Below are positions 1 through 35,302 of a stretch of DNA of 64,000 nt, in pieces. The stretch comes from Schmidtea nova (lineage: Eukaryota), in assembly GCA_044892505.1 (NCBI GenBank), contig CM097883.1, positions 83,514,001 through 83,578,000 of the forward strand, given 5' to 3'. The notes beneath the pieces were generated by a model. That model was not told where the DNA came from and made no database searches. It worked only from the letters and a program-made list of their open reading frames with translations. Both the position numbers and the translations under genes were made by a program. How positions within the stretch are numbered: the stretch's first letter is position 1; every line of letters starts with the position of its first letter.

Positions 1-2
1 CA

Positions 3-164
3 GCAAAACAATATAAACAATGTTACATATGCGAAGACAGTGAAATCCAAATAATGTTTCTACCATGCGGACATTTTCGATTTTGTAAAAACTGTGCGAA
101 TAAGTGTGATGAGTGCCCCATGTGCAATTTCTCTGTAGCTGATAAAATTGTAGTTTATTTATAA
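3..164 (+). CDS. C-terminal IAP/BIRC-type RING finger (5'-partial; not in the ORF track)
   Basis: Frame 3 reads AKQYKQCYICEDSEIQIMFLPCGHFRFCKNCANKCDECPMCNFSVADKIVVYL*, matching the IAP RING pattern C-x2-C...FLPCGH..C..C.....CP.C ending a few residues before the stop. Confidence 0.85.
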   Translation, partial: AKQYKQCYICEDSEIQIMFLPCGHFRFCKNCANKCDECPMCNFSVADKIVVYL

Positions 165-10800: not shown

Positions 10801-13800
10801 GACTAACCAATGCGCCAGCATCATTTCAAAGATGTATGAATTTCGTTACCCACGGCATAAAACAATGCATGGTTTACATTGACGACCTACTGATCTACTC
10901 AAGCACATTTGAACAACACATCCAAGATATCAGAGATGTATTTGTTAGATTGAGACAATGGAAACTCAAACTCAAACCATCGAAATGCGATTGGGCAAAG
11001 GAGAAAGTGACATTCTTAGGACATATTGTGTCCGCAAAAGGAAAGGAACCAGATCCCAGAAACATTGATAAAGTAAAAGAATGTCCAGTACCAAAGACGA
11101 TAACGCAGATCCAAGAATTTCTCGGATTATGCGGTTACTATAGAAAATTCATAAAGGATTACGCAGGAATTGCAAAACCAATCCAGGAGCTAGTAAAGAA
11201 AGACGTATCGTTCATATGGGGAAGCGAACAACAAACAGCCTTTGAAACATTGAGAGATAAGCTAATAACTGCACCAATATTGGTTCACCCGGACTTCAAA
11301 AAGCCATTTTTACTCGCAACCGACGCAAGTGGATATGCAGCAGGAGCAGTGTTAGGACAATATGATGACGAGGGAAAAGAGCGGGTAATCGGATATTATA
11401 GCAGAACATTCAAAAAACACGAGAAGAATTATTCAGTAACGGAAAGAGAAGCATTGGCAATAATATTAGCAATAAAACACTTTAAATATCTATTATGGGG
11501 ACACATTATATGCATAACCACGGATCATCAACCACTGGTATGGCTAGGACAACATAAGGAAACATCCAGCAGGTTGATGAGATGGGCGATGCAATTACAA
11601 GAATATTCACCAGATATAAAATTCAAATCAGGAAAAGCGAATGCCAACGCAGATTGCATGTCAAGATTAACGTTTCCAGAATTAACAGACCCAGAAGTGC
11701 AAAGAATATGCATAATGATAGCAGAGGATTTGGATTTCAGTGAGTTAAAGAAAGATCAGCAAGAGGATAAAGAACTAAGACCCATCATAGAATTCCTAAG
11801 CTCACGAAATATGGATGTATTCAAAGACAATGCAGAGTTAAAGGAACACATGAGGAAATACCAACATCGATACACAATAGAAAAAGGATGGTTATTAATA
11901 CGAGATGGAGAGAAACGATTAATGTGTCTGCCAGGTAATAGACGAAAAGAGATAATAACTCAATACCATGACGGAAAGTTGGGAGGACACATGTCCGATA
12001 AGAAAACATTAGATCGCATGAGACAAAAATATTATTGGCCAACAATGGACGAAGACGTAAAGGAATGGATAAAGAACTGTTTAACTTGTGCCACAAGAAA
12101 GGACAGTGGGAAGAAATGGAAAAATCCTTTAAAACCCATGCCAATACCAGCGGAACCAATGACTACCATTGCGATGGATGTAATAGGACCATTGCCAGAA
12201 AGTTTAAACGGGAATCAATATATACTGGTAATAACGGATTATTTGACTAAATTCCCTGAAGCATTTGCGATGCCGGATCAAAAAGCAAAGACCGTAGCAA
12301 GAATTTTAGTAGAGGAAATATGTTGTCGATACGGAACCCCGAAACAAATACTAACAGATCAAGGAACAAATTTTATGAGCGAAATATTAGATGAAGTAAC
12401 AAATTACTTCCGGATAGCTAAATTACGAACGTCACCATATCATCCGCAAACCAATGGACAAACGGAAAGATTTAACGGCACATTGATTCGAATGTTATCC
12501 AATTATGTAAGCAAACACCAAACAGATTGGGATGAATACGTAAAGCTATGTCTAATGGCATACAGAATGTCGATACACGCAGCAACAAAATTGAGTCCAT
12601 TTCAATTAATGTATGGAAGGGAATGCAATATGCCAATAGATCTTGAATATCAACCACCTTTGTCTCAATATATGGAGGAAGATGATTACGTCACCAAATT
12701 CAAAGAACGAATGCAAGAGATATGGAAGACAGCAGAACTGAACATAAAGTTTTACCAAGAAAGTTACAAGGACCTACACGATCAAAAGAAAAATGTTAAA
12801 ACAAATGATCTTAAACCAGGAGATTGGGTAATGATAGAAACCCCAGAAATAATACCAGGAACCGTTAAAAAACTACAAAGACCAGGAAAAGGCCCTTACG
12901 AAGTTATATACAAAAAGGAAAACAATGTGAAGGTAAAACTTGTTAATCGACCATTGATACGACCAATATACGTTAATACATGCAGATGTAAAAATGTACC
13001 AAAGACAATAACCACAGCGCCAGAAGAACGAATAATAACCAGATCCCAGACAGCCAGAATGAATATGCTCAGAGCAACCAATGAAAGTACCGAAGCAGAA
13101 AACAATCAACAAGAAAAAAGAAACAAGGAAATTGTACTAAAAGCCAGAGAAATAATGGGAAGATGGCATGTCAGAGACGATATATTAAGGGATATTCAGT
13201 CGATAATTAGTGATTACGCAAGGGGATTACCAACAAAACCAGTCATTTCAGAACTACTGGAAAAAATTCCAGAAATACTTTCACTAGAAGACATAGGAGG
13301 ACAACCAGCATTACATAACGCCATAAAATGGGGAGAAGTAGAGAGAGTAAAAGAATTTCTAAAAATCGCTAAGGAAACAAACCAACACCTTGGTTTTGGG
13401 AATAGCGAACAAGAAACACCATTAATGGTAGCAGCCATCTACAAATCGGATAAAGCAATAATAGACCTTTTGATAAATGCCGATTTCAACTGGACAGAAC
13501 GCGATAGAGAAAACAAAACAGTCTTGAATCACGCAATATGGAGCTCAAATCAGATAATGCTCAAACAAATAATCGAGAAGGCCACTTGGGAAATAGATGA
13601 ACTGATCAAAGGTGATATAATAAAGGAAGCAATAAAAATCGGTAACTGCAAAACAATACGCAAGCTAATAAAATGGAAAAGATCTGAAAATGATACATGG
13701 GTGTTAAATATAAACGAGGTATACAGTGAAGGACAAAACGCGTTATTACAATTCCTATTAAAATTAGTTTGTGATCAGAAAACACTGTTAATATTATTGG

Positions 13801-16800
13801 ACAGAAGAAAGATCACAATTTCCAAAAACAAAGAGGAGTGTAAATTCGAAAGCGAAAAAGAAGCATTATTCAGGAAAATTAGGGAATGGTGTGCAAAATC
13901 GCTAACCAAGTCGATAACTTACAAAGATATATCCAATTTTCAAGATAAGTACAAAACGGTGGAGGAAGAGTATGACAAACTAGTAGACATATTAAACCAC
14001 CCCGAAAAATGCAAACAATTCCTAGGTCGAAAGGAAAGAGAAAGCAAAAGGAAATTTACACCACTTTTCAGCGCAGAGGTACCATATCAAGAAAGGTTAG
14101 ATGCGATACAGGACAAAGCAAAAGAACTATTACCAGAATTCGAGAATTCTAAACATACACTGGAGATACTCGGATCAATTGTGGAAAAGGTACACGCATA
14201 TGCGGAAGGAACTTACAATGAAAACGATATGATGATCATAAAAAGAGAAATGCCAGTGACTTTCTTATTAACAAAAAATGGAGTATTGCCAATACATAGA
14301 GCCTTACGAGCAGGAAAAGATAGGAGGGTAGTCGAAATTGCACGGTTGATGCAAGATTGCGGAAGTGACATGAACATGAAAGATAAAAAGGGAGATACCC
14401 TCATGATATTCGCAGCAAGAGCGAACACAAAAACCCGAGTGTTACAGGAACTGTACGAAGCAGGTGCAGGACTCATGGGAAGAACTAACAAAGACAGCTC
14501 AATACTAGACGTAGCGTTGTTAGCGCACAATTGGGAGGTGATAAATTTCATAAAAACAATCACAAATCAGGAGGAAATAGAATACCTTACAAGGACAGTT
14601 AAAAAAGCTAGCGTACATTCCATGATGCATAACGCTGAACTAACTGAAGCAATACTCAATTGGATGAACCCAAACACCAATGAACCAGCATTCAGGATCA
14701 ACGAGTGCATGGAACAAGGCCAAAATTTGTATATAAAGTGTGCATTAATAATAAACAAATGGCCAAAGATAATAGATATCTTCATGAGAAGAAAAGATTT
14801 ACGATTCACAAACAACCCAAAGGAAACAGAACGTACGGACAAATGGAAAGAACTAATGAAAACGTACCTTAATAATTGGATAAAAGCCAAGAAAGAGATT
14901 CTAGATTGTAAATTAACCGATAAGGAAATACCTAAGCAGGCAGTAACACAAGAATATGAAGCAAGTATACTCACAACCATAACGTATGAAAAAATGATAG
15001 AAGCAATTAATGTCGAGGACGACATTTTCAACGACCAAAGGGGAGGCGACAATACAGGAAACGACGACGATAGTACTCGAGAAAATCCAGAGGATCATGA
15101 GTTATCAGATGAAGAGGACAGTGAAGAGAAAGGAAGGGACACAGAGAAAAATGATAAGAAAAATGAATTTGGGAAACAAAGAAACAACAACTATAAAAAT
15201 AAAAACGAAGCAAAAAGAACAGGCTACAAACAAACAATAAACCCATTCTTTAAACCAGAACTATTATTACTAACGGTAATCATGACCTTAATTAGTCCAA
15301 CTCAAGGGATGATATGTGAAGAAAGAGCGACAATACAAATTGGAAACGCAAAAGGAATCGAACGAGTATGTTGGTCAAAAAAGGACAAAATATCGGGACA
15401 AAATAGTCCAATGGATTGCAGGATCTCAGAATATGAACAAGAAATCATAGAGATCGATGACTTAGAGCTAGATACTTGGTACAAAATATGCACCATCAGA
15501 AAACAAAAGAATCCAAGATCACACAACACAATAGCATGTGCAAACTACCTAACGCCCAAAGTAACCATAACAATACAGCAGTCATCCAAAGGAGACTATG
15601 TTGTAGGAAAGTGTGGAAGAACAGAGACACAAGGAACAAAAAACAAGAAACCTCAGACAATAGACAGACGAACAACGCCAACTATACAAATTACCATAGA
15701 CAGGCCCGAAGTAAGAGTAACCACAAATGAAACCGAAAGAGTGACCTACCAAACAGAATTACTATGTTTAGCACTCATATTAACAATGTTAAAACGGTTA
15801 GAAGAAGGGATAGACATTGACACAATGGCAGTAACAGAGATGAACGACACCCAAAACACCAACCCAAAGTGTTGGGCCAGAAGCAACGAAGAAATTGGCG
15901 TAAGCGAAATAAAGACGAGTCGGAAAAGGAAAACAAATAAAGTAACCAAGATATCAGAAGTAAAAGCAGACAGGACGTATGAACTATGTTTACTAGAAAA
16001 AGAAAGACACAAGAAAGGAACGACAATTTGTAAAACATTTCAACCTGGGGAAACAATAAAGTTCATAAGAAGAAGAAGAAGAAATATACGCACCAAACGG
16101 AGGACAACTACAATGTTAGAGTTAACCGGAATAGAACCGGACGTCAAAGGCGTATGCTGGAAGAAGCAGGAAAAGAAAACAAACCAGAATACACCGCCGC
16201 AATGTCGAACAAACAGAGGAACAACCACAATACAGATAGAAGGGTTAGAAAGTAATCAAACGTACGAAATATGCCTGATTAGGAAAAGCGACAAAATAAC
16301 AGTAAATGAATTGGAATGCAAATTATATAAAACACCCACCAGAACAAGAGTTGGAAAGACAACGCGAAAAAGTAGAAGACAACGGAACAAAGGAAAAGCG
16401 AGGTATACCACTACCTTTAAACCTAATGGACAACAGAAAAACCAAGAAATACAAAGAAAAACCGAAAAGAATACTACAACAACTCTTATACTATGGAGAA
16501 TAGACAATAAAACGTTAGAAATATGTTGGGCAGTAGTTCAGGAACAAAAAGAAAGACAGCCACGATACTGCGAAAACGTAAAAGGAAAAGAAGAAATGAG
16601 TATCAAAAATCTGAAATTTAATAGAGAATACGAGATATGTGCGGTAGAAAAGACGGACATATTAGGAAATCAGCAGGAAAGATGCGAAACGTACTACACA
16701 CCGGTAAACTCAACGTCCAAAGGGAAAGTGAGAAAACTCGAATTTAAAGAATTAAGTCAGACAACGAAACAAATGGACGCGGAACAAGTAGTAATAGACC

Positions 16801-17201
16801 CTTACGCAAGATGGACGCCAGAAGAAGTAATTAAAGAAGTTAAAAGAAAACAACAAGAACGAGAACAATTACTAAATAAACTAAAGGGACAATACGGACC
16901 AATGATTAACCAGAGTGAAATTACGAAGATGGACGTAAACAAACAAGTTAGAGAACTAATTGGTCTAGGAATACTAGCAGCAACTATTCCAGTAATAACA
17001 GTATTATTAATAATATGGATATATGATGTATTCAACAAGAAACCAATAACACATTGGCCAGATATAAAGATTATGAACTACAGTATAGAATTACCGGAAG
17101 AAGTACAGAAAGAATTCCAAAGGAGGACGAAAGGTAAAGAATTTTGGAGACAAATAGAAGATGAAGAGCGATACGAAGGAAAGACAGTGATGGTGATATA
17201 G
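1818..17201 (+). CDS. 5127-aa Gag-accessory-Env-Pol-accessory polyprotein
   Basis: Uninterrupted ORF (open from 1785, TTG at 1818, first in-frame ATG at 2244). Contains CCHC x3, DTGA protease, YIDD RT, RNase H (TDAS...EALA...TDH), HHCC/DDE/GPY integrase and extra domains. Confidence 0.97.
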   Translation: MRKGEKSVIIKPAEKNKATKNNNQKGLKGSKARQIIIQKSIIENDKLSVTSNSSSNKENQAEPERNPISEIEVDKTNNDYIEEIEDEVEQETESDDTDNDSKASDNESAKETEIDRNSSDEPNSELETRGNESKITTDSGIEMSEPREEIKDKFSGEPFNGDASKLETFLKEFGIFVEVCKWKPETTVSRIQLYLKDSALDLYLEAKNGTNPPTSWSAIKDFFQQTFGINKVLNEAFTEFSMRKQKINESNAVYASELKKLAKLIFNQDSPINEELMAAIFVGGLRRPDIRAQVGCQGCKTIDQALETANRFELHMIGNDGRIYLAMDTAQNEQEVNLNNHIPNSQQLNRPPPQRRNEGNKVSNFGNQSNYNPQGPTKQCKTCGKLGHWQQECYQNLNCGKCGVKGHSESRCYTITCFNCGRPGHLSRNCGQRSNQRGNWQNTGNRQNYGNQPTGGNRQNYGNQPNNGNQPEYGNQPNSNNNNQNKNTTKEIHLMQEVQRLTELINNTTRGNPQTGQQQINMMRKIESENERLNRESQARHAQEWARVQREEEQKQQERERQPLRINMMRATNQANTHEKETVPEINPTNLNPTNNESRKEIVPGSEETEIEKEVETEANQEEKRMIWKKGMMVILPNGHMFRFQYNIKEEVGTLFNKVNEMAPGVTKLPREAFLKIEGAPEVKLKLTDTWENMGVVETKRNVMVIKEMEPEGIPSPVRHETRISRIFKGKMIRRRLGEIDELERKMRKVEVVDDKSESTQKAIKSETRPTENTPSEINQIKHINMLRGQAKNFSDDEEDSDVSSLAGDMLNEPEIEDKKIEVVKTPETIQVKEDEIQKLLDNALEVIYNEEFIDKKHYRKFMRAILQMNYKEWLPGREVETLSQYVGKLLKEPLHEYIILIEIKTCLPRIWIKTPLTEDIYQWVEDRLGSSYKNKFLYSQNGLVKKRTHLIETGIWPGEVTTLSICDDKREENLQEVAKEANTCFEKKIKPRLEYEKGRILRGNLNSMIEQIIPQIKKHRKELMRSEYERLKRCIECIRDTSHTRWSQISYGKVVAKMGKAMFRQGKITDLKISVELPNEDTKEIEVVADCTIKELVNVINETLLQREPEEEWEDDIIMKYNEHVLWDHDERRLYKIGIWDNHQTIHVIRMDDTPRETAKDEKRERERQKEVVHKLQQIVDIYRNWRIWPEWEDVLEELNLNRRLRTPVEKQWNERGKCWEPKAGEYEEEYGIGIEDDHKPETGRVCMVTRKAMPADLDGPETTTMWLEREKQKTEEFVEILKTNAHGKRKLVKGLADFFVVNGEDITCLRKVAKAIAEYKRVNEWCPEQLDQVIKKWRNQEFSQESPQKVHLRIVYPDQEKEEFWVGIAEKVRDIKKKLRYEPPFHLQHQGRSLDNSLEIGITPAQLDIANTLTVAAIAGQPLKLKEEKKPKGSMSTPSPMKSVMTPGTSSEQARTTPRETRERTPPEPYDVDEIFTDSDDMLEELIELTKEKDDNIFERIQELPTAIPVTNTEDEVEQEIIIEEVNEIAEEEARRANVENVQFTQEMERWLEERANEPRDVTEETGRETRLVETGTTMDKRPRGRPKMDPANVVIKSREEKRRDQWDLCLKKLNKIAETKEKETTQTYQGEEWISKTLMEILAIIDPELKKWWRINEISERAKSLHSAIAPILPELIKEKTRSNHLDWQGTTMLIKKLTEGAETDNKYLIAMAYTIYNLLTLSRGRLKPTALERHIKNTAKIIEKEIEPYIISKGGWETFTKTNQKKNQAKNMKRKFEEILGELEKEKSGTGNGKSSLNLSSIIMMMLIWMISTDGATAFEVFDCDQMALGEKYSLRGTEQCKDATPTELKTLKKRQLYHVYQEAELIRTMVRECKVYKTRFAFYCGHRHYSAIVMPGTERESVMLQGEDCEKLFKHGEVETRDRVKIRGKTGVILQQTYYVAGAITGGEGYCQGATYPIFGVAATNLVVIDTYTVELKTYEAFFDPTTGEMKTLPMCKIESNTCQTGMSTLTYQIRGKECQLQLLKEAEFDEIQGKTFQEEEEDEAARGKILQDTVRGEKKIETRTQEKQIKMRNTPTVLITSDADIGMRFVKGKTALKCGVAMLETNYPGIFVSKQEVPSAKRKVHTNDVKLHLYMNNKMDFLFHRGQASLQKVYYDLINNDCILNREILKTKLAVAITNPDSAMPLLPLREGHFGRVVGEVMYVYICKKTNAKVATMTKLQPSQCTNELEIEYKGKVRYVQPVTRIINPVSFEPNPFNCSNAYGPLYQKPDGNWVMFPSRTEVPAPREFELMQLSKGRKFKDVDVSNMGFYSAKDLEAARQNILFPARREAVLSSIVTITGGTNYQGGPNYELLLSPAHFKKATENMMKAMWGRFLIFGQMMAGILGVILIIQIIRVIITQMLACFDIYKREKKVNWKLVVGFLPFLAKTMVLHGHSKDIHRIKRLLKILAKMKGTDEEVGRKFKKIMNNEQARQQLKKERKGLWERMKGYRTQDDSSDDDDDDNEGGQVFKNQVPQYVEKNPAEMWKCYAPPPTMYQEPTPGMRQNTMQMMPMTNIYPMIPEDYRTRRCRSVDPQGDSHTIAVMSSNTGPVLTTTIEINGREIEAMIDTGANISAIDIKWIPQEQRRDIERTNVHVIACSKEVVEVAGRWWVKIKHQNTEIETYVAVIPALSVPCIIGTDLMPALFKEIVIDLGTMRLKDRTGQICAIEAKVTSSKQIIVPARREKICFVKIDPTIEGDMIFEPSKRFEKRKSLPMARGLVSANDNGEIPINVVNFDEEDKIIYENERLGKLTPMIDIEIPIKEGVKEEEPTWNIDSQLLNEDQKKQLERLLMEYKDIFAASDLDLGTCDVTLHTIPLTDETPIALRPYKLAEAQKSVAEAEVQKMLDAEVIEPSCSPWQFPVVMVKKKDGTQRFCIDYRRLNAVTKRDTYPLPDINEMLLTLQGAAYFTSLDLKSGYWQIKMKEEDKEKTAFTIGRDLYQFRKMPFGLTNAPASFQRCMNFVTHGIKQCMVYIDDLLIYSSTFEQHIQDIRDVFVRLRQWKLKLKPSKCDWAKEKVTFLGHIVSAKGKEPDPRNIDKVKECPVPKTITQIQEFLGLCGYYRKFIKDYAGIAKPIQELVKKDVSFIWGSEQQTAFETLRDKLITAPILVHPDFKKPFLLATDASGYAAGAVLGQYDDEGKERVIGYYSRTFKKHEKNYSVTEREALAIILAIKHFKYLLWGHIICITTDHQPLVWLGQHKETSSRLMRWAMQLQEYSPDIKFKSGKANANADCMSRLTFPELTDPEVQRICIMIAEDLDFSELKKDQQEDKELRPIIEFLSSRNMDVFKDNAELKEHMRKYQHRYTIEKGWLLIRDGEKRLMCLPGNRRKEIITQYHDGKLGGHMSDKKTLDRMRQKYYWPTMDEDVKEWIKNCLTCATRKDSGKKWKNPLKPMPIPAEPMTTIAMDVIGPLPESLNGNQYILVITDYLTKFPEAFAMPDQKAKTVARILVEEICCRYGTPKQILTDQGTNFMSEILDEVTNYFRIAKLRTSPYHPQTNGQTERFNGTLIRMLSNYVSKHQTDWDEYVKLCLMAYRMSIHAATKLSPFQLMYGRECNMPIDLEYQPPLSQYMEEDDYVTKFKERMQEIWKTAELNIKFYQESYKDLHDQKKNVKTNDLKPGDWVMIETPEIIPGTVKKLQRPGKGPYEVIYKKENNVKVKLVNRPLIRPIYVNTCRCKNVPKTITTAPEERIITRSQTARMNMLRATNESTEAENNQQEKRNKEIVLKAREIMGRWHVRDDILRDIQSIISDYARGLPTKPVISELLEKIPEILSLEDIGGQPALHNAIKWGEVERVKEFLKIAKETNQHLGFGNSEQETPLMVAAIYKSDKAIIDLLINADFNWTERDRENKTVLNHAIWSSNQIMLKQIIEKATWEIDELIKGDIIKEAIKIGNCKTIRKLIKWKRSENDTWVLNINEVYSEGQNALLQFLLKLVCDQKTLLILLDRRKITISKNKEECKFESEKEALFRKIREWCAKSLTKSITYKDISNFQDKYKTVEEEYDKLVDILNHPEKCKQFLGRKERESKRKFTPLFSAEVPYQERLDAIQDKAKELLPEFENSKHTLEILGSIVEKVHAYAEGTYNENDMMIIKREMPVTFLLTKNGVLPIHRALRAGKDRRVVEIARLMQDCGSDMNMKDKKGDTLMIFAARANTKTRVLQELYEAGAGLMGRTNKDSSILDVALLAHNWEVINFIKTITNQEEIEYLTRTVKKASVHSMMHNAELTEAILNWMNPNTNEPAFRINECMEQGQNLYIKCALIINKWPKIIDIFMRRKDLRFTNNPKETERTDKWKELMKTYLNNWIKAKKEILDCKLTDKEIPKQAVTQEYEASILTTITYEKMIEAINVEDDIFNDQRGGDNTGNDDDSTRENPEDHELSDEEDSEEKGRDTEKNDKKNEFGKQRNNNYKNKNEAKRTGYKQTINPFFKPELLLLTVIMTLISPTQGMICEERATIQIGNAKGIERVCWSKKDKISGQNSPMDCRISEYEQEIIEIDDLELDTWYKICTIRKQKNPRSHNTIACANYLTPKVTITIQQSSKGDYVVGKCGRTETQGTKNKKPQTIDRRTTPTIQITIDRPEVRVTTNETERVTYQTELLCLALILTMLKRLEEGIDIDTMAVTEMNDTQNTNPKCWARSNEEIGVSEIKTSRKRKTNKVTKISEVKADRTYELCLLEKERHKKGTTICKTFQPGETIKFIRRRRRNIRTKRRTTTMLELTGIEPDVKGVCWKKQEKKTNQNTPPQCRTNRGTTTIQIEGLESNQTYEICLIRKSDKITVNELECKLYKTPTRTRVGKTTRKSRRQRNKGKARYTTTFKPNGQQKNQEIQRKTEKNTTTTLILWRIDNKTLEICWAVVQEQKERQPRYCENVKGKEEMSIKNLKFNREYEICAVEKTDILGNQQERCETYYTPVNSTSKGKVRKLEFKELSQTTKQMDAEQVVIDPYARWTPEEVIKEVKRKQQEREQLLNKLKGQYGPMINQSEITKMDVNKQVRELIGLGILAATIPVITVLLIIWIYDVFNKKPITHWPDIKIMNYSIELPEEVQKEFQRRTKGKEFWRQIEDEERYEGKTVMVI
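2244..3110 (+). other. gag: Gag capsid plus three CX2CX4HX4C zinc knuckles (2955-3107)
   Basis: FSGEPFNGDASKLETFLKEF...; CKTCGKLGHWQQEC, CGKCGVKGHSESRC, CFNCGRPGHLSRNC. Confidence 0.93.
3711..6070 (+). other. Three putative ubiquitin-like domains (about 3711-3930, 5031-5275, 5868-6070) in the Gag-Env spacer
   Basis: LKISVELPNEDTKEIEVVADCTIKELVNVINE...IIMKYNEHVLWD..RRLYKIGIWDNHQTIHVIR and KVHLRIVYPDQEKEEFWVGIAEKVRDIKKKL...LQHQGRSLD follow the beta-grasp ubiquitin pattern; the first copy is weaker. Confidence 0.6.
6564..6587 (+). other. AT-hook motif
   Basis: KRPRGRPK. Confidence 0.7.
6720..7110 (+). other. Bcl-2-like domain inside the polyprotein
   Basis: Helical domain ending IEPYIISKGGWETF (BH2-like, cf. 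WIQDNGGWDAF), with a BH1-position segment DNKYLIAMAYTIY upstream. Confidence 0.72.
7221..9135 (+). other. env: Envelope glycoprotein, chuvirus-like / class III (gB-type), with internal signal peptide and C-terminal TM
   Basis: Signal LSSIIMMMLIWMISTDGATA|FEVFDC; CKVYKTRFAFYCGHRHYSAIV; LYMNNKMDF; DCILNREILK; GEVMYVYIC; CTNEL; GFYSAKDLEAARQNILFP; TM WGRFLIFGQMMAGILGVILIIQII. These match chuviral glycoprotein motifs as recalled. Confidence 0.82.
9600..9930 (+). other. Retropepsin aspartic protease
   Basis: IEAMIDTGANISAID...CIIGTDLM. Confidence 0.95.
10430..11660 (+). other. pol: Reverse transcriptase and RNase H (Ty3/gypsy type)
   Basis: RFCIDYRRLN, YPLP, LDLKSGYWQI, MPFGLTNAPASFQ, YIDDLL, FLGH, ATDASG, YSVTEREALA, TDHQPL. 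Confidence 0.98.
11950..13000 (+). other. Integrase (HHCC, DDE, GPY/F)
   Basis: HDGKLGGH...CLTC; MDVIG; TDQGTNF; NGQTERFN; KGPYEV. Confidence 0.97.
13290..14560 (+). other. Two clusters of ankyrin-like repeats after the integrase
   Basis: GGQPALHNAIKWG, QETPLMVAAIY, NKTVLNHAIWS, NGVLPIHRAL, KGDTLMIFAA, DSSILDVALL. Confidence 0.85.
15255..17201 (+). other. C-terminal type I membrane protein: signal peptide, 4 FN3-like repeats, TM (16956-17024), cytoplasmic tail
   Basis: PELLLLTVIMTLISPTQG|MIC; four units of CW...I..L....YEIC...C (e.g. IEGLESNQTYEICL); TM LIGLGILAATIPVITVLLIIWIY. Confidence 0.7.
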
Positions 17202-17326: not shown

Positions 17327-17683
17327 ATGAACGAACAGGAAGAAATAGCAGAAACTACTATGGCTATGCGATGGAAAGCCCAGTGTGACATGTTAATACG
17401 AACAATCAACTCACTACAAAATCAGTTAATTGAGAAACAGAATTTGTTATCCGAAAGTTATAATAATAGTTTTGAACAACTCCACAGAATCGAGGAGCAA
17501 CAGAGATTGATAACGCAACTTACCAGAGAGAATCAAGTGATGAGCGACATAAATCAGAGACAAGCAATAGAGATAGACCGTTTAACAATGGGAGAGACAG
17601 AAGAAGCAGAGGATGGATGGACAAATTGGGCAATAAACAGATCAGAAAATGACCCAGAACCAGATTCAACAAACGAGCCGTAG
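17327..17683 (+). CDS. Accessory ORF A, 118 aa coiled-coil protein of unknown function
   Basis: ATG-initiated, heptad-rich, same codon bias as the polyprotein, inside the element. Confidence 0.7.
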   Translation: MNEQEEIAETTMAMRWKAQCDMLIRTINSLQNQLIEKQNLLSESYNNSFEQLHRIEEQQRLITQLTRENQVMSDINQRQAIEIDRLTMGETEEAEDGWTNWAINRSENDPEPDSTNEP

Positions 17684-17774
17684 ATAAATAAAGCGAAAAA
17701 TTGTAAATATGTAAAAACAAAAACAAGAAAAATCAAAAAATAGATAACAAATCAAGTGTATATATCATTGTAGA

Positions 17775-19157
17775 ATGAATACAGAAGGAAAAGCCGAAGA
17801 GCGGATAATCGAAATTTTGAGAGCCGAGAACAGGAAATGGAGTCAGAGACTCACTTGTGTAAATTGTAAAAACATAATATTGAAACCAAGACAAACCCTA
17901 TGCGGATGCAGAGTATGTACCAAATGCATACACGAGTTAAGTATGAAAAGACCACCAGAATGTCCAGAATGCAAAGAAGGACAAATAAAATTCGAAGAAA
18001 CCGGACCAGATAGAGCAACTCAGAGAGAAATCATGAACACGAAAACCGAATGTATAAATCAATCATGTATATGGCAAGGACAAATACGCGATCTCGAGAA
18101 CCATCTGGAGAACTGCGAAGAGAAGAGAACTGAATGTAACAAATGCCAACAAAAAATAACTATAAAGAATAAAGAGCAGCACAAAGATGAATGTAAAGAA
18201 GAGGAAAGTCTATGCGAATATTGTGGAACTCGAGAAACGAGGAGAAAGATCGAAGAAGAACACCTGAATGTAAAAGAGGAGAAAGTATGTAGACAATATG
18301 TAGGAATATGTTCAAACGAATGCGAGATAACGGTAGAAGTAAAATTACAAGAACATTGGAAAGTGTGCACGGAGAAACCAAGGGAATGTCCTTATAACAA
18401 ACAGGGATGTATGGAGAAAAGAACGCAAAAAACCATGAAACAACATCTGGAGGAAGCATTGCTAAAGCATGCGGAAATGACAAACGAAGCAACAAAAGAA
18501 ACCGAACAAACAATCAAAAAATTAGAAAGAGAAATAGAGTCACACAAGATAATGGTAAACCTACTGTTGGAAACCAGAGAGCAATTCGAACTAACACGAG
18601 AAAAGATGGAGGAAAAGATAAAAGCTATCGAAGAACTGGCTAAAGGAATGAAAATCCAGTACAACAAACTCACCCAGGATACCGAGGAAAAGTTACCAAT
18701 CGCACCCTATGTGTGGAAAGTGACAGATTTTAGAAACAAATTAACAGAGGCCAGAAATATGACGAAAACAGCAGTAATAAGCCCACCATTTTATTTATGG
18801 AGAAACGGAGCTAAAGTGAGATTGAAGCTATACCCAAATGGAGACGGAAGAGGACGAGGAACACATGTGTCAATATTTTTCTCGCTATGTAAAGGAGAAT
18901 ACGACGACCTAGTAGAATGGCCCTTGAAAGTAGGAGTCATTGTAAGAATCAGAAGTGTAACAAAACCAGTAGAAAAATTCTTTGAGACAGAGAAACATGC
19001 GAGTACGAGCGAGAAACCAACCACAGAATGTGGATTAGCAGCGAGAGAACCGATGTTTATAACGAAAGAAAGCCTATGGGAACGATTATATGCAGACACC
19101 CTATACATAGAAATGGAAAGGAATGAGAAAGCGGATAGAAAAGGATGGTTGACGTAA
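17775..19157 (+). CDS. TRAF homolog (RING, TRAF zinc fingers, coiled coil, MATH), intronless, element-borne
   Basis: RING CVNC...CGCRVC..C...CPEC; TRAF Zn fingers; MATH VWKVTDF...SPPFY...LYPNGDGRGRGTHVSIFFSLCKGEYDDLVEWP. Confidence 0.93.
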   Translation: MNTEGKAEERIIEILRAENRKWSQRLTCVNCKNIILKPRQTLCGCRVCTKCIHELSMKRPPECPECKEGQIKFEETGPDRATQREIMNTKTECINQSCIWQGQIRDLENHLENCEEKRTECNKCQQKITIKNKEQHKDECKEEESLCEYCGTRETRRKIEEEHLNVKEEKVCRQYVGICSNECEITVEVKLQEHWKVCTEKPRECPYNKQGCMEKRTQKTMKQHLEEALLKHAEMTNEATKETEQTIKKLEREIESHKIMVNLLLETREQFELTREKMEEKIKAIEELAKGMKIQYNKLTQDTEEKLPIAPYVWKVTDFRNKLTEARNMTKTAVISPPFYLWRNGAKVRLKLYPNGDGRGRGTHVSIFFSLCKGEYDDLVEWPLKVGVIVRIRSVTKPVEKFFETEKHASTSEKPTTECGLAAREPMFITKESLWERLYADTLYIEMERNEKADRKGWLT

Positions 19158-19271
19158 CCAGAAAAGTGATCATGTAAATAATATGTACAGTTAAATACCC
19201 AAAAAATTATTATATAAACAAAAATAACTGATATATAAACCGATTAAAATTTTCATTCTGTAATTATAGCA

Positions 19272-20333
19272 ATGGGAAATATCGAGGTATGCTTACAGGA
19301 AATTACGATGCATCAAGCAGAAGCGATTAGCGATCATCTAGAACAGATTGAAATATGGGTCAATGCATATTATGGAAAGCAAGAGGAGATAGAGAGACAA
19401 GCCGAATTATTAAAAGAAGCGGAAAGATCAAGTCAAAGAAGTCGAGAAAAAATAGAAGAAGTATACAAAATGCTACAACAACAAAAGGAATATTACCAGA
19501 GAATGATGAAAGAGCGACGAGAGGAAAGAGACAGACAGCAGATGGAAGCTGAACACAAGATGTATTCGATTACAGAACAAGCAAGATACTGGAAGAAAGA
19601 AGCGAAAGAATCTTACGAAAAAGCTAGAGAAATAATAGAAAGGACAGCTTATAGTGATGACTGGAAGTTATATAAAGAGATCGATGAACTAAAAGACGAG
19701 TTAGAACAAAAAATCAACCAGGAAGTGTTAAATAAAAGATGGAATACAAAAAGACAGCAATTTATCCGCGAACAAGCAAAGAAAATTAAAGGACTAACCT
19801 ATCAAGTTCAAAGAATGGGAGAAGAACTAGCTAATCAAGAACAACTGAAAACTATGCTCACCGGAATATGGAATCAGAAAGAAGAAGAGATGAAGAGAGA
19901 TATAAATGGTTATCAAGGGGTGATCACTCAAAAGAAAATAGAGCTAAAAAGAACCAGGGAAAGGTTAAAGGAAGAGAAACAAAGTTACGAGGAAAATTTA
20001 ACGAATTTGATGAAAGAAAACGAAGAATTGAAACAGAAACGAGTAACAGTATCAGTAATACCCAAAGAAGCAAGTATAACGGCAGCCGTAACAAAAATGA
20101 TAAAAGAAGACGAACAAAAGACAAAAGTAATCGAATTAGAGAAACAAATAGAAACATTAACAGAACAAGCAAATTACCTAGAATATTTGCTAGACGAGGA
20201 GATCCAGATATCTCACATGTATCGAGATGAAGTCGAAATGTGGAGGAGCAGGGTTGTTTGGATACCACTCCCCACAAACCAAGTAGAGCCTCAGGACGAA
20301 GGTTTCTATGAACCAAATGAGACGATTGTGTAA
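19272..20333 (+). CDS. Accessory ORF C, 353 aa long coiled-coil protein
   Basis: E/K/Q/R-rich heptads over most of the length; inside the element. Confidence 0.8.
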   Translation: MGNIEVCLQEITMHQAEAISDHLEQIEIWVNAYYGKQEEIERQAELLKEAERSSQRSREKIEEVYKMLQQQKEYYQRMMKERREERDRQQMEAEHKMYSITEQARYWKKEAKESYEKAREIIERTAYSDDWKLYKEIDELKDELEQKINQEVLNKRWNTKRQQFIREQAKKIKGLTYQVQRMGEELANQEQLKTMLTGIWNQKEEEMKRDINGYQGVITQKKIELKRTRERLKEEKQSYEENLTNLMKENEELKQKRVTVSVIPKEASITAAVTKMIKEDEQKTKVIELEKQIETLTEQANYLEYLLDEEIQISHMYRDEVEMWRSRVVWIPLPTNQVEPQDEGFYEPNETIV

Positions 20334-20414: not shown

Positions 20415-20987
20415 ATGAAAAAGCTCAGAATACCGATATTCCTATACCTAATAACAATCACCCTACAAAGAGAAGATCTTCAACTCACAGAGAAGGAGCT
20501 ACGAGCCCTACCCGAGAAAACCTATCAAGAACTAGATAAACTAATCAGCGAAGCAACACAAGAAATCACCCAACTTCAACAGATAACATCAGACAACCCA
20601 AACGATGAAAAATTTCAACAGGTCCTATATGAACATCGAATCAAATTGAAAACAATCAGAAAAACCCTAAAAGAAGGTCGAGAACCCATAAAAAGCTTAG
20701 CCCAAGCAGAGATAGAATATCAAGAAAAATGGATCATCGCAATTATAATAATCCTTGCACTCAGCGTGACCATTATCGCGATCACAATCCTCATAACATC
20801 ATACCGAGTGAAGATCCTAAAACAAAAACAAGTCATCCTGAATCGAACAACAATACAAGACAGCAGAACCCAAAAGCGAATGGGAAAACACCTAAACCGA
20901 ATCCAAAGCCACTACGAACTACGAACAATCAGCGAAAGAACCCCAATCCAATCCAATACCAATCATGAAATCAAAGAGCTTGTGTAA
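20415..20987 (+). CDS. Accessory ORF D, 190 aa predicted single-pass membrane protein
   Basis: Hydrophobic N-terminus IPIFLYLITITL, helical region, TM WIIAIIIILALSVTIIAITILIT, basic tail. Confidence 0.75.
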   Translation: MKKLRIPIFLYLITITLQREDLQLTEKELRALPEKTYQELDKLISEATQEITQLQQITSDNPNDEKFQQVLYEHRIKLKTIRKTLKEGREPIKSLAQAEIEYQEKWIIAIIIILALSVTIIAITILITSYRVKILKQKQVILNRTTIQDSRTQKRMGKHLNRIQSHYELRTISERTPIQSNTNHEIKELV

Positions 20988-21192: not shown

Positions 21193-22524
21193 TGTTGGGC
21201 CAGCCAAATAGAGGGAACAGTGAAATAAAAGTAGATTAATTAAAACAAAAAAGAGAAAAATAAGGTAAAAAGGGGAATATTTATTTATTAAAAGAAAGGA
21301 ATAATATAGTAAAAATATAGAATAACTAAGTACAAGCTATAAATAAAAATAAATGAATTTATAGATATTAACGGGCCCAGGAGACATCTAAAAACAAATA
21401 AAATACAAATAATAATAATTAAAACCAAATAAAAGTACTTGTTATTGAATAATTGTTTTTGAAACCCGGACCTCCAAGGAAGAATACAATCTAAAAAATA
21501 AAAATTAATTAGAATCAAAAACAATAATTAAAAACCACCATGAAACTGGCCAAACCTGATTGGTCAGTCTAGACACGACTGATCAGTATAAATACTGATC
21601 AGATTTTTCATAAAATCAGACTTTGGTAGACTAGACGTTTGACTAGAGTGAGACTTTAGTAGACTTTGTTAGACTGAAATTTAGACTTTAACTAAAAATT
21701 CGCATTAGATTGCACATTGCCCCGACGACGATCACCGTTTAGACCGATTTTGATCAATAAATTTTCAGAATTCAATTGAGGTATTTTTGGTACATTATTT
21801 GATGTTGTATTCATATGTCATTATCATATTATAATATATTATTCATCTCATTATGATTTACGTTATATTTAAACTATTTAAACTATCATATTAATCTCGC
21901 GCCGTTGGGAGCTTTAGGTTCCCAAGGTGTTCGTCCGTGGCGTGGTGCTCGAGGGCTCCACACACGGTAAAGTAATAAATAACAAAGCATAATTTTATTA
22001 GTGATGGTGGAGATTTGCACATGGGACACCCAACAAATCCGGGGAATTATTTTCCGATCATTTTAGCTACAGAGGGGACGAAAATTTTTTGATAACGCTT
22101 AAAGATATGAAAGAATTTTTTTTTTAACCGTGAGGAGGCACAAATTGTTCACCCTCCCCAGAGCACAATGGCTAGATAAACGTCTAATAAACCTTAGAAA
22201 AATTAGGTCGACCGCATTTGGTACAAAAGAGCGTTTTTCGAATAAGCTAGGGATACATGACGGGAGAGAGCTTCCGTTTTGAGGTATCAATATTTTGAAA
22301 ATCCAAGCAGACAAATCACCATTTTTTCGTCTATAATATTGATCGTAAACAGATAAAGCTAAGTAGATACGAGAGTAATGTATACGTAACGAACGACAGT
22401 TTCTCTTGATTTCAGCTAAGGGGTAGGCAAATAATAAAGATATCACGATGAGAGATAACATTTACTATGATTAATTATTGATGTAAATTGTAACTATTAT
22501 AAAATTCAGCATCGTTTTGGAATC

Positions 22525-23001
22525 ATGACTAAGCATAGATACACTATCAAAAAACGACAAGAACGAGCCCGAGTTAGCCCATTAAAGCCGGCTCCTTTCG
22601 AGATTTTACAGCAAATCCATCAAAAGATGTGGGCATGGCGCCGAGAGCTCGAAACCGCCTGTCCATTTACAGTATGGGACCATCCACGGCACCACGTCTG
22701 GTACCGGGGATGCGCTAGTTGGCCAATCATTCCAGATGAGGAATTCGAATCATGGCACGCCGCCTGGTTCATCATGATGTTGGACAAAGGAGGATTCCCG
22801 AAATGTGTGATTTATTGGGGGTTCATTCCAGCCTCTACCTTCAAGGAATTGGGGTTCAAGTTCAATACAGCCATACGACCCCTTCGAGAAGCTGAGAGAA
22901 TCCGCTTCCAGCAAGCCTCCTCCAATAGCACGGGAATCCACACAAATTTGCAAATTAAATCGATATTTTCGTATCGGGGAAAAACGACCGGAGATGGATA
23001 A
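22525..23001 (+). CDS. LTR-embedded ORF 1, 158 aa Trp-rich protein of unknown function
   Basis: ATG-initiated, GC-richer than flanks, open for 158 codons in AT-rich context. Confidence 0.55.
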   Translation: MTKHRYTIKKRQERARVSPLKPAPFEILQQIHQKMWAWRRELETACPFTVWDHPRHHVWYRGCASWPIIPDEEFESWHAAWFIMMLDKGGFPKCVIYWGFIPASTFKELGFKFNTAIRPLREAERIRFQQASSNSTGIHTNLQIKSIFSYRGKTTGDG

Positions 23002-23319
23002 TTGAATAAATGGCCACCTATTTTTGAATTTAATAAATGTTTTAAAGAAGTCTGAAGTGTCTCATTTTGTTAATAGTGTTGTCATGTAGATTTAGTATTG
23101 TAGTTGTTATAGTCATTAGGAAATTCATTTATTAATACAAAATTAGTTTAATAAATCTTTTGAGTCTTCAATGGTTAGATAGTTAAATACTTCTGTAAAG
23201 AACTCGATAATTAAAAACATTAGTATACATCTCGTTTAATAATAATAAAGAGTAGACTAAATAAAATAACATTGTTGATAGGTCCTCCAGCGAATTTATC
23301 GTTATAATATTCAGACAAC

Positions 23320-23904
23320 ATGCCGACTACAGAAAATTCCAAGAAAATCATGGGACAAATCCAAGAAAGGAAGTTGAGGGACCAGCAGCGACAGATCAAG
23401 CGACTCACGGTCGCCAATGATGAATTGAGAGCGAAGTGGTTCTCACCCGGACAAATGAAGGACCAGTCGAAAAAACTTGAGCGAGTGCAGGAAGCACTGG
23501 CCACAACCAAATTGGAACTAGATGCCGTCCAGCGAGAACTCCGAAATTGCCTGAACGCAGTAACAAGAAGTTACATCGACTCCGAATTGCGAGCGCTAAT
23601 CCGGCCGATCACGGCTCAGCGCTGGATACAATGCACTCACCAAGATGTCGCTTGCGGGACAGAAGATGATATCATCATGGCACCCACTCTTACAACGGAA
23701 GATTTGCCTATTTTTCTCAGTGATCCCCCGAGAATAATAGCGTCAGCACCGGTCATAAACCAACAGCTTCGAAAACATCGAATGGGATCGCGACAGCGCC
23801 GTCGTCGCCGAGAATTTGCAAAGCGCCTGGATGAACGAATCTACCACCTGAACTCCTTAACCGAAGCAGAGTTAATCCAGGAGATTAGCCTGGAGTTTGA
23901 ATAG
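23320..23904 (+). CDS. LTR-embedded ORF 2, 194 aa coiled coil plus Arg-rich motif
   Basis: ATG after TTCAG-ACAAC; RQRRRRREFAKR near the C-terminus; AATAAA-rich signal downstream (~23996). Confidence 0.62.
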   Translation: MPTTENSKKIMGQIQERKLRDQQRQIKRLTVANDELRAKWFSPGQMKDQSKKLERVQEALATTKLELDAVQRELRNCLNAVTRSYIDSELRALIRPITAQRWIQCTHQDVACGTEDDIIMAPTLTTEDLPIFLSDPPRIIASAPVINQQLRKHRMGSRQRRRRREFAKRLDERIYHLNSLTEAELIQEISLEFE

Positions 23905-25829
23905 GAAAACCTCAATGTAAAATAACAACCTGTCTTTATTATTTTAATAAAAGTATTACTGTGTAAAATTTTTCTCTCATCGTGTGAATTCACTAAATAA
24001 AATAAAATAACAATAGCTAAATCCTAGAAGTAAAAAATCGCAGCCGCATTTTTCTCAAACCGACCGTTTCTACGCAGGAGCTGATTAATTACCTTGTAGA
24101 TCAGTTAAGGACAGTGAAATTGAGGAAAAGCGTGTGATAGATCATAAGGATGTGTAGTATAAAATTCAGTAGGAAGCGAACATCCATAGAATGTAAATGC
24201 GTAAGACCTTCTATCGGCAGCAAGGACCCGAGGGAAGATAAATGGGGAGTAGTTTTGGCAACAAAGCTCACCTGCCCATCATTTTTCCACCACCGTATGC
24301 AGTACCAACTTGGCTAGTAGGGAATAGTCAAGGGCATACGCGTGTAGTAGTCATGTTATGTATGGTTATGGGCGTGGAATCCCTAGTATACGTACTCATC
24401 AATAGTCGTTCAATTAATGATTAACTATTTATTTGAATTACTTAAAACCCACCCATAATCCCAACAATATATTCAACTCAAAAAATAGAATAGTCTCCGT
24501 TCTTTGCCCTTTTGAACTTTTTAGTTTTATTGTTACGGTCCGTAACAAGTAACTAAATTTAATTTTAAATCGTTTTAAAATCATTGTGGAATAATATTTT
24601 TCATTCGTTAGATGGCGAAACAGTACTTAATTTATACAAGTTAAATGTAAAATCAGAACAAGCAGTGGCAAATTTAACAATTAATTCTTTTCATCCATTT
24701 ATTAATGTAAATCATTGTTTTCTTCAATGAACTTTATTAAGTCAGACATGATAATAGATTAAAAGGTGGGAGTAGTGCTGTTTGTATCCTGCTAAAGCGA
24801 CCAGTTAGACAGGTATGATACTTTATTATTTTCTTATGTAGTCTTTTCATGTTTCAAGTAAAAACAAATTATAACAAAACTGTTGATTCAAGTTATTTTA
24901 TAATGTTGGGTTATTAATGAGTAGTCGATGGTACCTGACTCCTGTGTTCTCTTTTTATCACTACAAGAAATCAGACCCAACACCATAAATTTTATTTTTG
25001 ATTCAATACAATACTGCTAATCACAGAAAGTTACAATTGTTCTACAATCTGCGATAGGGTAGAACACCCAATGGGATATCTCCCTTTCTGATACGCAGGA
25101 ATTGATGGATCGATACTTTATAACTTTTAATTACCGTTTCCGTTGCCTTTTCTATGTTCCAATCACTCGCTCGACTCTTCGAGATTTTCTTCGACAAACT
25201 GGCTTCGACCAACTGGATTCGACCAACTGGCGAGTACGGCAATTTTGACTTAACTTTTATAGTGATTTTTCGATTGGTCCTGTCACGTCTTAATGTATCA
25301 GTCAATTGGTAAATTAACTGGAAGCTGCTGCTAAGTGAATTTTCCCGGGACCTTCTGTAATTAATCAAATTATTAATAAATTTATTGATGTCCCGAGTTT
25401 CCCACGTAGCTCGGGTTTCATATTAGGCAATTAATTATTTTAATTAATTTGTATTTTCTTAATATTTCTTTCTTTGGGTCCCTTTTTAATTGTATACACG
25501 CATATTTGAACTCGTCTCATCATTTGGCATCCTCCCATACCAGTTTCCCCTTCTCAATATTTATTTTGAATTTTTATAAATTTTTAATTAATGTTTGCAT
25601 ATTGATCATTATTTTTCCTATTTTCGTATTTTTATCTATTTGCACATAGTTTTTGTGCTTTTTGTGCTTTTTAACTTTTTATTTCAGCCTATTCAGGCAA
25701 CCCTAAAAAATAAAATCAAATAAATAATTCATGGCACGTCAGCTAGTAAATAAGTAATTTTTGGCACGCGCACTCAAAAAGGTTTGCCACCACTCGTCTA
25801 GATATTATAATATTTTATTAATTATGTAT

Positions 25830-29951: not shown

Positions 29952-30989
29952 TGAAAATCGACAGTTGACGTTTTTTTTGTCTATCAACAAAATAAACTCG
30001 GCAAAAATTCAAAGCCAAAAAATTGTTTTTCTATTGTTTTTCTTTAGTTTTTTTTTAATTTTGAAAATTATTATAATTTTAAATATAAATCGAAAATTTT
30101 TTTCCCAACCAAGAAGAAAAAACAAAATTTACAAATCGGCCAATGGAAAATGTTTCTCTTGCATTTGCTCGACGTAGTCGTTGTGAGACGAACATAAATG
30201 CGTTTTCATCTCAACAAGAGTGAAAGCAGAGAAAAATATCCCCATTTTCTATTTGTTGATTCACTGTGTCAATTGCTCACTGGCCAAGAATGTTTTTTTA
30301 TATTTATCAAATACTGATGATAACAGATGTAAGATAGATGATAACAATTTGAGATTGCAATTGAAGTTGCAGTTTTGTTTCGATGGGCATGCGATGGAGA
30401 AAAAGACATCTAAAAAAGGTTAAATGGGCTTCGTGGAAAAATGGATAAACAAAGTTGATTTTAAAATGGGAAAAATGAAATATTTATTCAATAGTAAACA
30501 AACAAAATTTCTTTGTTGACACTTCATTGGGAGGATTTAAAAAGGATTTCTGAATTTCAAACTCATTATAAAAAATATTCTTTAAATTAATTTTTAAATT
30601 TTGTTTTAGTAACCGTATCAGACGTTATATTATTATTTTTTATTTTAAAATGTCTTGAATTTATTAATTAATAAAAAGTATACTGATTTTATTAAAAACA
30701 CATTTGAATGAGCGGAATCAAAGATCACAAGAGCCCTAAGTCTGGGAAATAGAGTGAGAAAGTTAAAGGAATTCCTAAGTTTAATAATAATAATAAAAAT
30801 TTATAGTAATATTAACAATACAAATTATAATGTTAATATTAATAATAATTGTTGGATTATTTTAATTTAAAATAATCAACATTTTTTTAAATAAAAGTTT
30901 GTTTAAATAAAGAAAAAAAAGATGAAGAATAGAAATTTAAAAAATTAAATAAATATTATTTCTTGTCATTTTATTATATTTTAAGAATT

Positions 30990-31795: not shown

Positions 31796-31859
31796 CTCCG
31801 GGTCCTGAAGCCTTCGAAGTCAGTTCTTCGTTTATTCCCGGAACATCCCAGTCTTTTTT

Positions 31860-34767: not shown

Positions 34768-35302
34768 AGGGGAGATATGTTGGATTATTTTAATTTAAAA
34801 TAATCAACATTTTTTTAAATAAAAGTTTGTTTAAATAAAGAAGAAAAGATGAAGAATAGAAATTTAAAAAATTAAATAAATATTATTTCTTGTCATTTTA
34901 TTATATTTTAAGAATTATGAATGACTCGAACAATAATATTAACAATATTAATTATAATATTAATAATATTAATAATATTAACNNNNNNNNNNNNNNNNNN
35001 NNNNNNNNNNNNNNNNNNNNNNNNNNNNNNNNNNNNNNNNNNNNNNNNNNNNNNNNNNNNNNNNNNNNNNNNNNNNNNNNNNNNNNNNNNNNNNNNNNNN
35101 NNNNNNNNNNNNNNNNNNNNNNNNNNNNNNNNNNNNNNNNNNNNNNNNNNNNNNNNNNNNNNNNNNNNNNNNNNNNNNNNNNNNNNNNNNNNNNNNNNNN
35201 NNNNNNNNNNNNNNNNNNNNNNNNNNNNNNNNNNNNNNNNNNNNNNNNNNNNNNNNNNNNNNNNNNNNNNNNNNNNNNNNNNNNNNNNNNNNNNNNNNNN
35301 NN

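Follow-up and report, generated by a model that had tools for sequence, protein, structure and literature searches.

Burro elements are giant Ty3/Gypsy retroelements of planarians, and those of S. mediterranea exceed 30 kb according to PMC6431247. The same source places a MATH_TRAF_C domain within the polyprotein of Burro1 (GYPSM1) of S. mediterranea and, in a Burro-like element of D. tigrina, in an upstream accessory ORF (PMC6431247, Arkhipova & Yushenova 2019). An IAP of Burro1, B-IAP, is attributed to Lee et al. 2026 (Dev Cell) in PMC13465017, and by this secondary citation it shields stem cells from apoptosis. Burro, the MATH/TRAF cargo in it and its IAP are therefore already known. In the literature on TRAFs in retroelements, PMC6431247 alone was found to describe such cargo, and none of the papers listed for trans-splicing together with transposons concerned Burro. 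Apparently new are a complete TRAF gene under selection in several element families, its planarian donor clade, a TRAF-IAP tandem in one non-autonomous family (D) and a grammar of the spacers between accessory genes; Grohme 2018 and Lee 2026 may already contain the TRAF gene or its transcripts and so part of this.

The window studied here is a 64,000-nt stretch of the Schmidtea nova genome (assembly GCA_044892505.1, contig CM097883.1, positions 83,514,001 to 83,578,000). On its sequence, the element that carries the TRAF is a relative of Burro and not Burro1 itself. Shared with Burro1 and the D. tigrina element are the giant Gypsy organization with long LTRs, an ORF1 of about 5000 aa with Gag and, judged by weak matches, perhaps ubiquitin-like and BCL2-like parts, an env in the middle of gag-pol, ankyrins, MATH_TRAF cargo and accessory ORFs. 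With 28.4 kb the element is slightly smaller than the Burro elements of more than 30 kb; its LTRs of 3.27 kb have TG..CA ends and its target duplication is 4 nt long. Unlike in Burro1 and the D. tigrina element, the TRAF is a complete separate RING-zinc finger-coiled coil-MATH gene 3' of the polyprotein, and, in contrast to Burro1, the element has neither a BIR nor a polyprotein MATH.

The element and its TRAF gene

The 3' LTR lies at 21193..24466 on the forward strand (3274 nt, ends TGTTGGG...CCCAACA). Its twin, the 5' LTR, is situated directly upstream of the window at G000:C2:83510074-83513349, and for this reason a self-repeat search inside the window did not find an LTR pair. The two LTRs are 99.8% identical, with 5 substitutions and one 2-nt gap over 3276 nt, and the target-site duplication reads ATAT. 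A primer-binding-like site, which we take to resemble tRNA-Pro, follows the 5' LTR. Two ORFs within the LTR (22525-23001 and 23320-23904; 158 and 194 aa) gave no Pfam match; related families have similar ORFs in their LTRs, as do solo-LTR fragments. A stretch at 41284-41565 is 76% alike to the LTR end (24179-24469) and is a relic of a related element.

The order of genes is RING-only ORF, polyprotein, 118-aa ORF, TRAF, 353-aa ORF, 190-aa ORF and LTR, all on the forward strand. The RING-only ORF (153 aa) starts 298 nt upstream of the window at G000:C2:83513703, with its 3' part at 1..164, and consists of a helical part and an IAP-type RING (zf-C3HC4_3, E 5e-13). Tandem repeats of units of about 30 nt and of 42-55 nt fill parts of the leader between this ORF and gag (636-882, 1048-1285), and a candidate splice donor was noted at 437. 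The polyprotein (2244..17201, 4985 aa) comprises a Gag with CCHC knuckles, a chuvirus-type fusion glycoprotein (env), protease, RT, RNase H, integrase and ankyrin repeats, and ends in a hydrophobic segment; the catalytic motifs are present, and env is placed between gag and PR-RT-RH-IN. Burro polyproteins have ubiquitin/SUMO-like, BCL2-like and dUTPase-like segments; here, weak matches were located at the expected places for Ubiquitin_4 (E 0.058) and Bcl-2 (E 0.12). The BCL2-like part had no PDB match, and neither a dUTPase nor a MATH domain was found in this polyprotein. The accessory ORFs are located at 17327..17683 (118 aa; dN/dS 0.08; families A2, B and D each have a homologue 5' of the TRAF), 19272..20333 (353 aa, reads as a coiled coil; dN/dS 0.05; A2, B and D likewise have homologues) and 20415..20987 (190 aa, with a hydrophobic N-terminus and one membrane segment predicted by eye). 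Rfam gave no match over positions 1-25000.

The TRAF ORF (17775..19157, forward strand) encodes 460 aa in a single intact frame in the ORF list. RING, TRAF zinc fingers, coiled coil and TRAF-C/MATH are all present and place the protein in the TRAF family, as the original prediction had stated for all four modules. The RING occupies residues 28-66, four TRAF-type zinc fingers residues 93-224 approximately, the coiled coil residues 229-303 and the MATH domain residues 312-447. Eight cysteines (28/31/43/45/48/51/63/66) form the RING, with cysteine in place of the usual histidine. Pfam recognized the RING weakly (TRAF3_RING, E 0.058), a zf-TRAF (170-224) under the cut-off (E 8e-5) and MATH clearly (E 1e-19). 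Against known structures, the RING and first zinc finger matched TRAF2 (3knv, E 6e-10) and TRAF6 (E 5e-9). The AlphaFold model, computed from a 35-row alignment (mean pLDDT 89.9, pTM 0.45), consists of a RING/zinc-finger chain, a single 75-residue helix (229-303) and a beta-sandwich, and every match listed by Foldseek was one of TRAF1-6. The fold and module order are those of vertebrate TRAF2/3/5, with a TRAF2-like RING start; by contrast, the element TRAF is not orthologous to these proteins, its coiled coil is shorter and its receptor-groove residues are changed.

The location between the polyprotein and the 3' LTR is as predicted, except that the TRAF adjoins neither: the 118-aa ORF lies within the 573 nt that separate it from the polyprotein stop, and two further ORFs (353 and 190 aa) follow it. 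The A-rich, element-like codons are likewise borne out. Third-position A amounts to 0.51 both in the TRAF and in the polyprotein, versus 0.26-0.37 in host MATH-bearing frames, so by this measure the codon use of the TRAF is fully converted to that of the element.

In active E3 ligases of the TRAF6 type, hydrophobic residues that flank the first RING cysteine pair are E2 contacts. The RING of the element TRAF has polar residues at this pair, like TRAF2, and lacks the hydrophobic ones of the TRAF6 type; autonomous E3 activity, part of the original prediction, is therefore doubtful. The TRAF2 RING is reported as unsuited to Ubc13 binding in PMC6262405. In alignments, the receptor-peptide groove region of the MATH domain has diverged from TRAF2/3/5, so that the ligand may be something other than a receptor tail. 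Two substitutions, at residues 97 and 424, are private to the window copy and absent from 29 other copies, and residue 424 is a nearly invariant MATH position; this particular copy may therefore be impaired.

Other features were observed elsewhere in the window. In a second, ordinary Gypsy element (30883-34934), with direct repeats of about 125 nt, one ORF is gag-like (DUF7041) and a pol fragment lies at 32956-34767. An innexin ORF in a single frame (389 aa, Pfam E 4e-47) is located at 44929-46098, a foldback-like long inverted repeat with arms of about 500 nt that are 93-98% complementary at 49145-50156, and a Tc5/pogo-type transposase fragment on the reverse strand at 55329-55856. In a chimeric ORF at 60830-61606, a ubiquitin-like N-terminus, presumably RAD23-like, is joined to a Paf67/eIF3L fragment; the ORF adjoins a palindromic tandem array with a period of about 300 nt (61740-63950) and looks like captured gene fragments.

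Copies, families and origin of the TRAF gene

A genome search with the TRAF scored 92 of 6467 candidates, which were classified by hand count. Full length at 92% identity or more was reached by 82 of the 92, so the TRAF is not restricted to the copy in the window; 71 of these 82 have no internal stop and 11 have one. Five further matches form a subfamily, A2, at 78%, and five are partial or more diverged. Element flanks surround the TRAF at all 30 top loci, one of which is internally rearranged, and the frame is intact in 29. Of ten loci with greater divergence, those of the five A2 copies show the ORF order preserved, while several others are truncated or recombined. An assembly artefact or a lone host gene was ruled out by the multicopy state and the element flanks. 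The copies of family A, to which the window element belongs, differ by 0.4-1.3% from the window copy, and in 8/9 other family A copies fetched the RING ORF has the same BIR-less 153-aa form. At two loci, family A TRAF cassettes adjoin an ORF resembling a membrane ORF of family D, which suggests nested or recombined elements. The 40 matches that a DNA search aimed at processed (spliced) TRAF copies gave out of 368 candidates are full length and uninformative on such copies.

A MATH profile search of the genome scored 150 of 2419 candidates, again sorted by hand count. About 72 of the scored matches are host-type, and distal C2 (405-455 Mb) holds about 63 of these. A further 76 or so are dispersed and resemble a second family, B; in the one opened, the TRAF of 470 aa is about 52-53% identical to that of the window and lies in the same gene order. 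Two sit in long polyprotein frames and represent family C. The one opened (G000:C1:97570001-97598000) has a 4606-aa polyprotein with an internal MATH domain, a layout like that of Burro1, and an upstream RING-only frame and is devoid of a BIR; of the TRAF modules the family keeps MATH only, RING and coiled coil being absent. The RT of the opened element has 90% identity to that of the window element while its gag is only 34% identical, which suggests recombination between families.

Family D was exposed by a BIR search of the genome (150 scored of 1295 candidates), where it dominates the scored matches. It is a non-autonomous Burro derivative of about 24-27 kb, found for example at G000:C1:552695001-552725000 and mapped at four other loci. 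The LTRs are 99.7-100% identical, and gag, env, RT, RNase H and integrase gave no match in any of the five mapped elements. All five carry a cassette of a 211-aa ORF, TRAF, BIR+RING IAP, coiled-coil ORF and membrane ORFs, in which the IAP (389 aa) is directly the next gene, 220 nt 3' of the TRAF. The ORFs on either side of the TRAF-IAP pair have their homologues in the window element. The family D TRAF is 35% identical to the window TRAF with the full architecture kept, and in a search with it 91/91 scored matches had 99-100% identity and no stops. The LTRs are about 82% alike to those of family C, which may be the helper of family D. Two family D insertions have Polinton/adintovirus-like ORFs beside them, judged by eye to be ATPase-, capsid- and integrase-like.

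A complete TRAF gene is thus cargo in four element families (A, A2, B and D), and TRAF and RING ORFs occur together in all four. Against subfamily A2, the dN/dS of the TRAF is 0.116 and 0.135 at a dS of about 1, with 0.17 for the RING, 0.08 for the zinc fingers and 0.14 for MATH; inside family A, 29 pairs that are not independent give a pN/pS of 0.17. Purifying selection acts across all four TRAF modules. All element copies examined are young and dispersed with near-identical LTRs (99.3-100%), and no fixed solo TRAF copy was found among the loci opened.

In a full-length tree of 32 rows picked from 117 plus family D, the element TRAFs (A, A2, B, D and sequence P0014) form one clade with a support of 99/97, nested inside a planarian clade with 99/98; a quick tree of 59 rows agrees, and the biased letter make-up of the element rows can draw them together in trees. 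In a MATH tree of 54 rows picked from 129 plus family D, the element TRAFs join the polyprotein MATH and the long-branch protein P0037 (95/94). P0037 is the nearest candidate for the host sister of the element TRAFs (94/89). Grouping the element TRAFs with the canonical TRAF2/3 of other animals was rejected (p-AU 0.0047, the group having been chosen after earlier trees). The window TRAF therefore goes back to a planarian-specific TRAF clade and has a common origin with its counterparts in three other element families; that the polyprotein MATH of the fifth family arose from this origin too is probable. The nesting within the planarian clade sets the direction from host to element, and, with the many copies in element flanks and the purifying selection, upholds the predicted capture of a host TRAF as cargo. 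The predicted TRAF2/3 likeness is correct for the fold and the best PDB matches and incorrect for descent. A word-indexed protein search with the TRAF gave 12 distant TRAFs at 23-50% identity and is uninformative beyond these; a search of the same kind with the family D IAP gave nothing, a blank that is likewise uninformative.

Planarian host TRAFs (D. japonica TRAF2-like A, ADF47429.1; Dendrocoelum TRAF-2/-4/-5) resemble the element TRAF in size (about 440-490 aa), in the cysteine-for-histidine RING, in zinc-finger spacing and, at the host loci that were opened, in a coding sequence confined to one frame, and they belong to the same tree clade. The element TRAF is set apart from them by an identity of 25-31%, by its codon use and by its separate clade, which contains no host gene. 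Of the two outcomes that would have spoken against the original prediction, a TRAF limited to this copy and orthology to a syntenic host gene, neither occurred. The cysteine for histidine is common to planarian host TRAFs and is also found in a few TRAFs of other animals, and one host TRAF of the S. nova genome pairs with D. japonica TRAF2-like A. At seven host loci, where codon use is that of the host, a single frame extends from RING to MATH. The lack of introns, correctly described for the element TRAF, is therefore no proof of retro-capture, and the argument from intronless to retro-capture was rejected; capture through RNA would nevertheless be the natural route for an LTR element.

The host TRAF/MATH cluster at G000:C2:405-455 Mb is dense, in part with tandem units of about 4-4.7 kb. 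The 11 host cluster genes sampled form a clade of their own in the MATH tree (98/96), which led to the rejection of host TRAF expansion from the element, and none of the 20 host MATH loci of the genome in the tree is an element-derived host gene. Of the proposed contribution to TRAF expansion, what remains is that the elements themselves add at least about 250 TRAF ORFs.

Spacers of the accessory genes and the possible IAP partner

The spacer before the TRAF (17684..17774, forward strand, 91 nt) has AATAAA at +4 and TGTAAATA at +19 after the upstream stop, and a TAG acceptor lies 1 nt ahead of the TRAF ATG (17773). The spacer after the TRAF (19158..19271, forward strand, 114 nt) has TGTAAATA at +16 and a TAG before the next ATG; the place of this spacer is taken by the BIR-RING IAP gene in family D. 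The acceptor before the TRAF and the TGTAWA after it are kept in 30/30 copies, and TGTAAATA has zero occurrences in the 15-kb polyprotein. Over 18 spacers of 73-262 nt from the four families A, A2, B and D, which are related and not independent, TGTAWA starts 15-22 nt past the stop in 18/18, and a YAG ends within 5 nt of the next ATG in 17/18. In 2000 base shuffles the corresponding means were 0.9 and 2.8 and the maxima 6 and 8. An additional family D spacer outside this set, between a 274-aa and a 264-aa ORF, has neither feature at those positions. The four spacers of the window element are only weakly alike, and both motifs occurred in all four in 0/20000 shuffles. A YAG stands within a few bases ahead of every accessory ATG, of none of the three gag ATGs checked, and of only 12/154 internal polyprotein ATGs. 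TGTAWA is often doubled, and AATAAA is present in some spacers only. We take the doubled motif to resemble the target of the 3'-end factor CFIm, and it also fits a Pumilio site.

Short same-strand spacers, 3'-end signals and an acceptor before each downstream ATG, the features of an SL operon, are present here. The row of cargo genes would fit an operon resolved by trans-splicing and, equally well, a transcript spliced several times in cis from a 5' donor in the manner of complex retroviruses. In flatworm operons, as given in PMC12582326, same-strand genes lie no more than 300 nt apart, the intercistronic median is 99 nt in S. mansoni, and SL trans-splicing is reported in S. mediterranea. The spacers of 73-262 nt found here match this spacing. 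The row differs from flatworm SL operons in being located inside an LTR element that also needs a full-length genomic RNA, and in that no SL-bearing read was found. Reads of four runs covered all 30 bins including the spacers, with no joint at the predicted acceptors; this coverage is DNA-like and uninformative on expression.

The partner proposed by the original prediction, an IAP RING of the element, did not find support. No BIR was detected in six frames of the window element, and Pfam BIR was absent from the RING ORF and the polyprotein. A BIR profile was run against five elements, one for each of A, A2, B, C and D, and matched only that of D; the profile was built mostly from family D rows, and a very divergent BIR could escape it. 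In A and A2, the sequence that follows the TRAF up to the next ORF holds no IAP remnant. Because cIAPs bind TRAF trimers via BIR1 (PMC6262405), the RING protein of the window would be a poor cis partner, and, compared with the TRAF2-cIAP module, the family of the window has no cis BIR partner. The adjacency of TRAF and IAP in family D is the better sign of a module, and it is to this family that the TRAF-IAP idea fits. With its 389-aa BIR+RING IAP, family D resembles Burro1, where B-IAP is likewise a captured host cell-death regulator, while the family of the window has no such IAP. Either the IAP was lost in A, A2 and B or it was gained in D.

Function and significance

The reading that we favor, with a probability of roughly 0.6, is that the TRAF is a long-retained accessory gene of an env-bearing Burro-type Ty3/Gypsy element, whose product would enter host TRAF-IAP and death signaling as a scaffold to the benefit of the element. 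From the spacers, we infer that the protein is made from its own mRNA, separate from the polyprotein; this mRNA would be spliced onto the AG just 5' of the ATG and would probably end through the UGUA/AAUAAA signals past the stop. Going by what is known of the family, the protein would trimerize through its coiled coil and MATH domain and serve, in the manner of TRAF2, as a scaffold whose RING is weak. By entering host TRAF-IAP-TAK1/p38 and cell-death signaling, it would let cells in which the element is expressed survive or would lower their defense. If it has an IAP partner, this would come in trans, from the host or from family D with its BIR-RING IAP, and would not be the product of the RING-only ORF. 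Burro1 RNAi did not rescue a smedwi-2 phenotype in PMC8532177, which lends no support to a strong effect in that setting.

Several other readings were weighed. For a neutral passenger, recently acquired and copied along with the element, speaks the youth of family A (0.4-1.3% from the window copy), where intact frames alone prove little; this reading is refuted by the divergence data, namely a dN/dS of 0.12-0.14 at a dS of about 1, the retention of the whole architecture at 53% (B) and 35% (D) identity and the fully converted codon use. Another idea is a decoy that blocks signaling, rather than passing it on, by trimerizing together with host TRAFs or by taking up the sites where these dock. 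The absence of a BIR in families A, A2 and B, a RING without TRAF6-type E2-contact residues and a diverged MATH groove would all suit a decoy, and planarian homologues of TRAF2/3/6 are immune genes according to PMC7958881. A pure decoy would, however, have no need of a RING and zinc fingers under purifying selection (0.17 and 0.08), and four families retain the whole gene even though a RING-less form, the MATH of family C, exists; we regard a decoy as unlikely.

Somewhat more plausible than a decoy, and still only tentative, is a host-beneficial gene selected through host survival or regeneration more than through spread of the element, a reading that overlaps the favored one. The Burro1 IAP provides a precedent by secondary citation (PMC13465017), and the non-autonomous family D keeps TRAF and IAP intact (5/5 mapped; 91/91 scored TRAFs without stops), a state that recent amplification alone explains. 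The copies examined are all in young dispersed elements with LTRs of 99.3-100% identity, and the loci opened included no fixed solo copy, both of which count against selection through the host. Considerably less probable is an active E3 that pairs with the IAP-type RING protein of the element through a RING-RING heterodimer or a helical contact. The two ORFs are found together in families A, A2, B and D and the 153-aa RING ORF is conserved in 8/9 other family A copies fetched; yet it has no BIR, while the known TRAF-IAP interface requires BIR1 (PMC6262405), and it is also present in family C, which lacks the TRAF RING and coiled coil, so that it does not track with the TRAF.

The favored reading, an accessory scaffold gene, may be taken further as a conjecture, to which we give a rather low probability. 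Burro-type elements would carry an operon, in which one LTR transcript is cut into single mRNAs by 3'-end formation at the doubled UGUA motif behind every stop and by SL trans-splicing onto the AG ahead of every ATG, with a captured TRAF-IAP module as core that is intact in the high-copy non-autonomous family, while autonomous families, that of the window included, keep the TRAF only and use an IAP in trans. If this is true, a retroelement exploits host trans-splicing for a multi-gene anti-death and anti-immune cassette, and its TRAF-IAP core is a miniature TRAF2-cIAP complex. The spacer grammar predicts the exact RNA junctions.

PMC6109357 counts 121 MATH domains in a planarian gene set, and TRAF/MATH counts in such sets may blend element cargo with true tandem expansions of the host. 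The published MATH_TRAF domain label in Burro becomes a testable full gene, selected in four families and placed beside an IAP in one, which bears on the persistence of giant planarian retroelements in stem cells.
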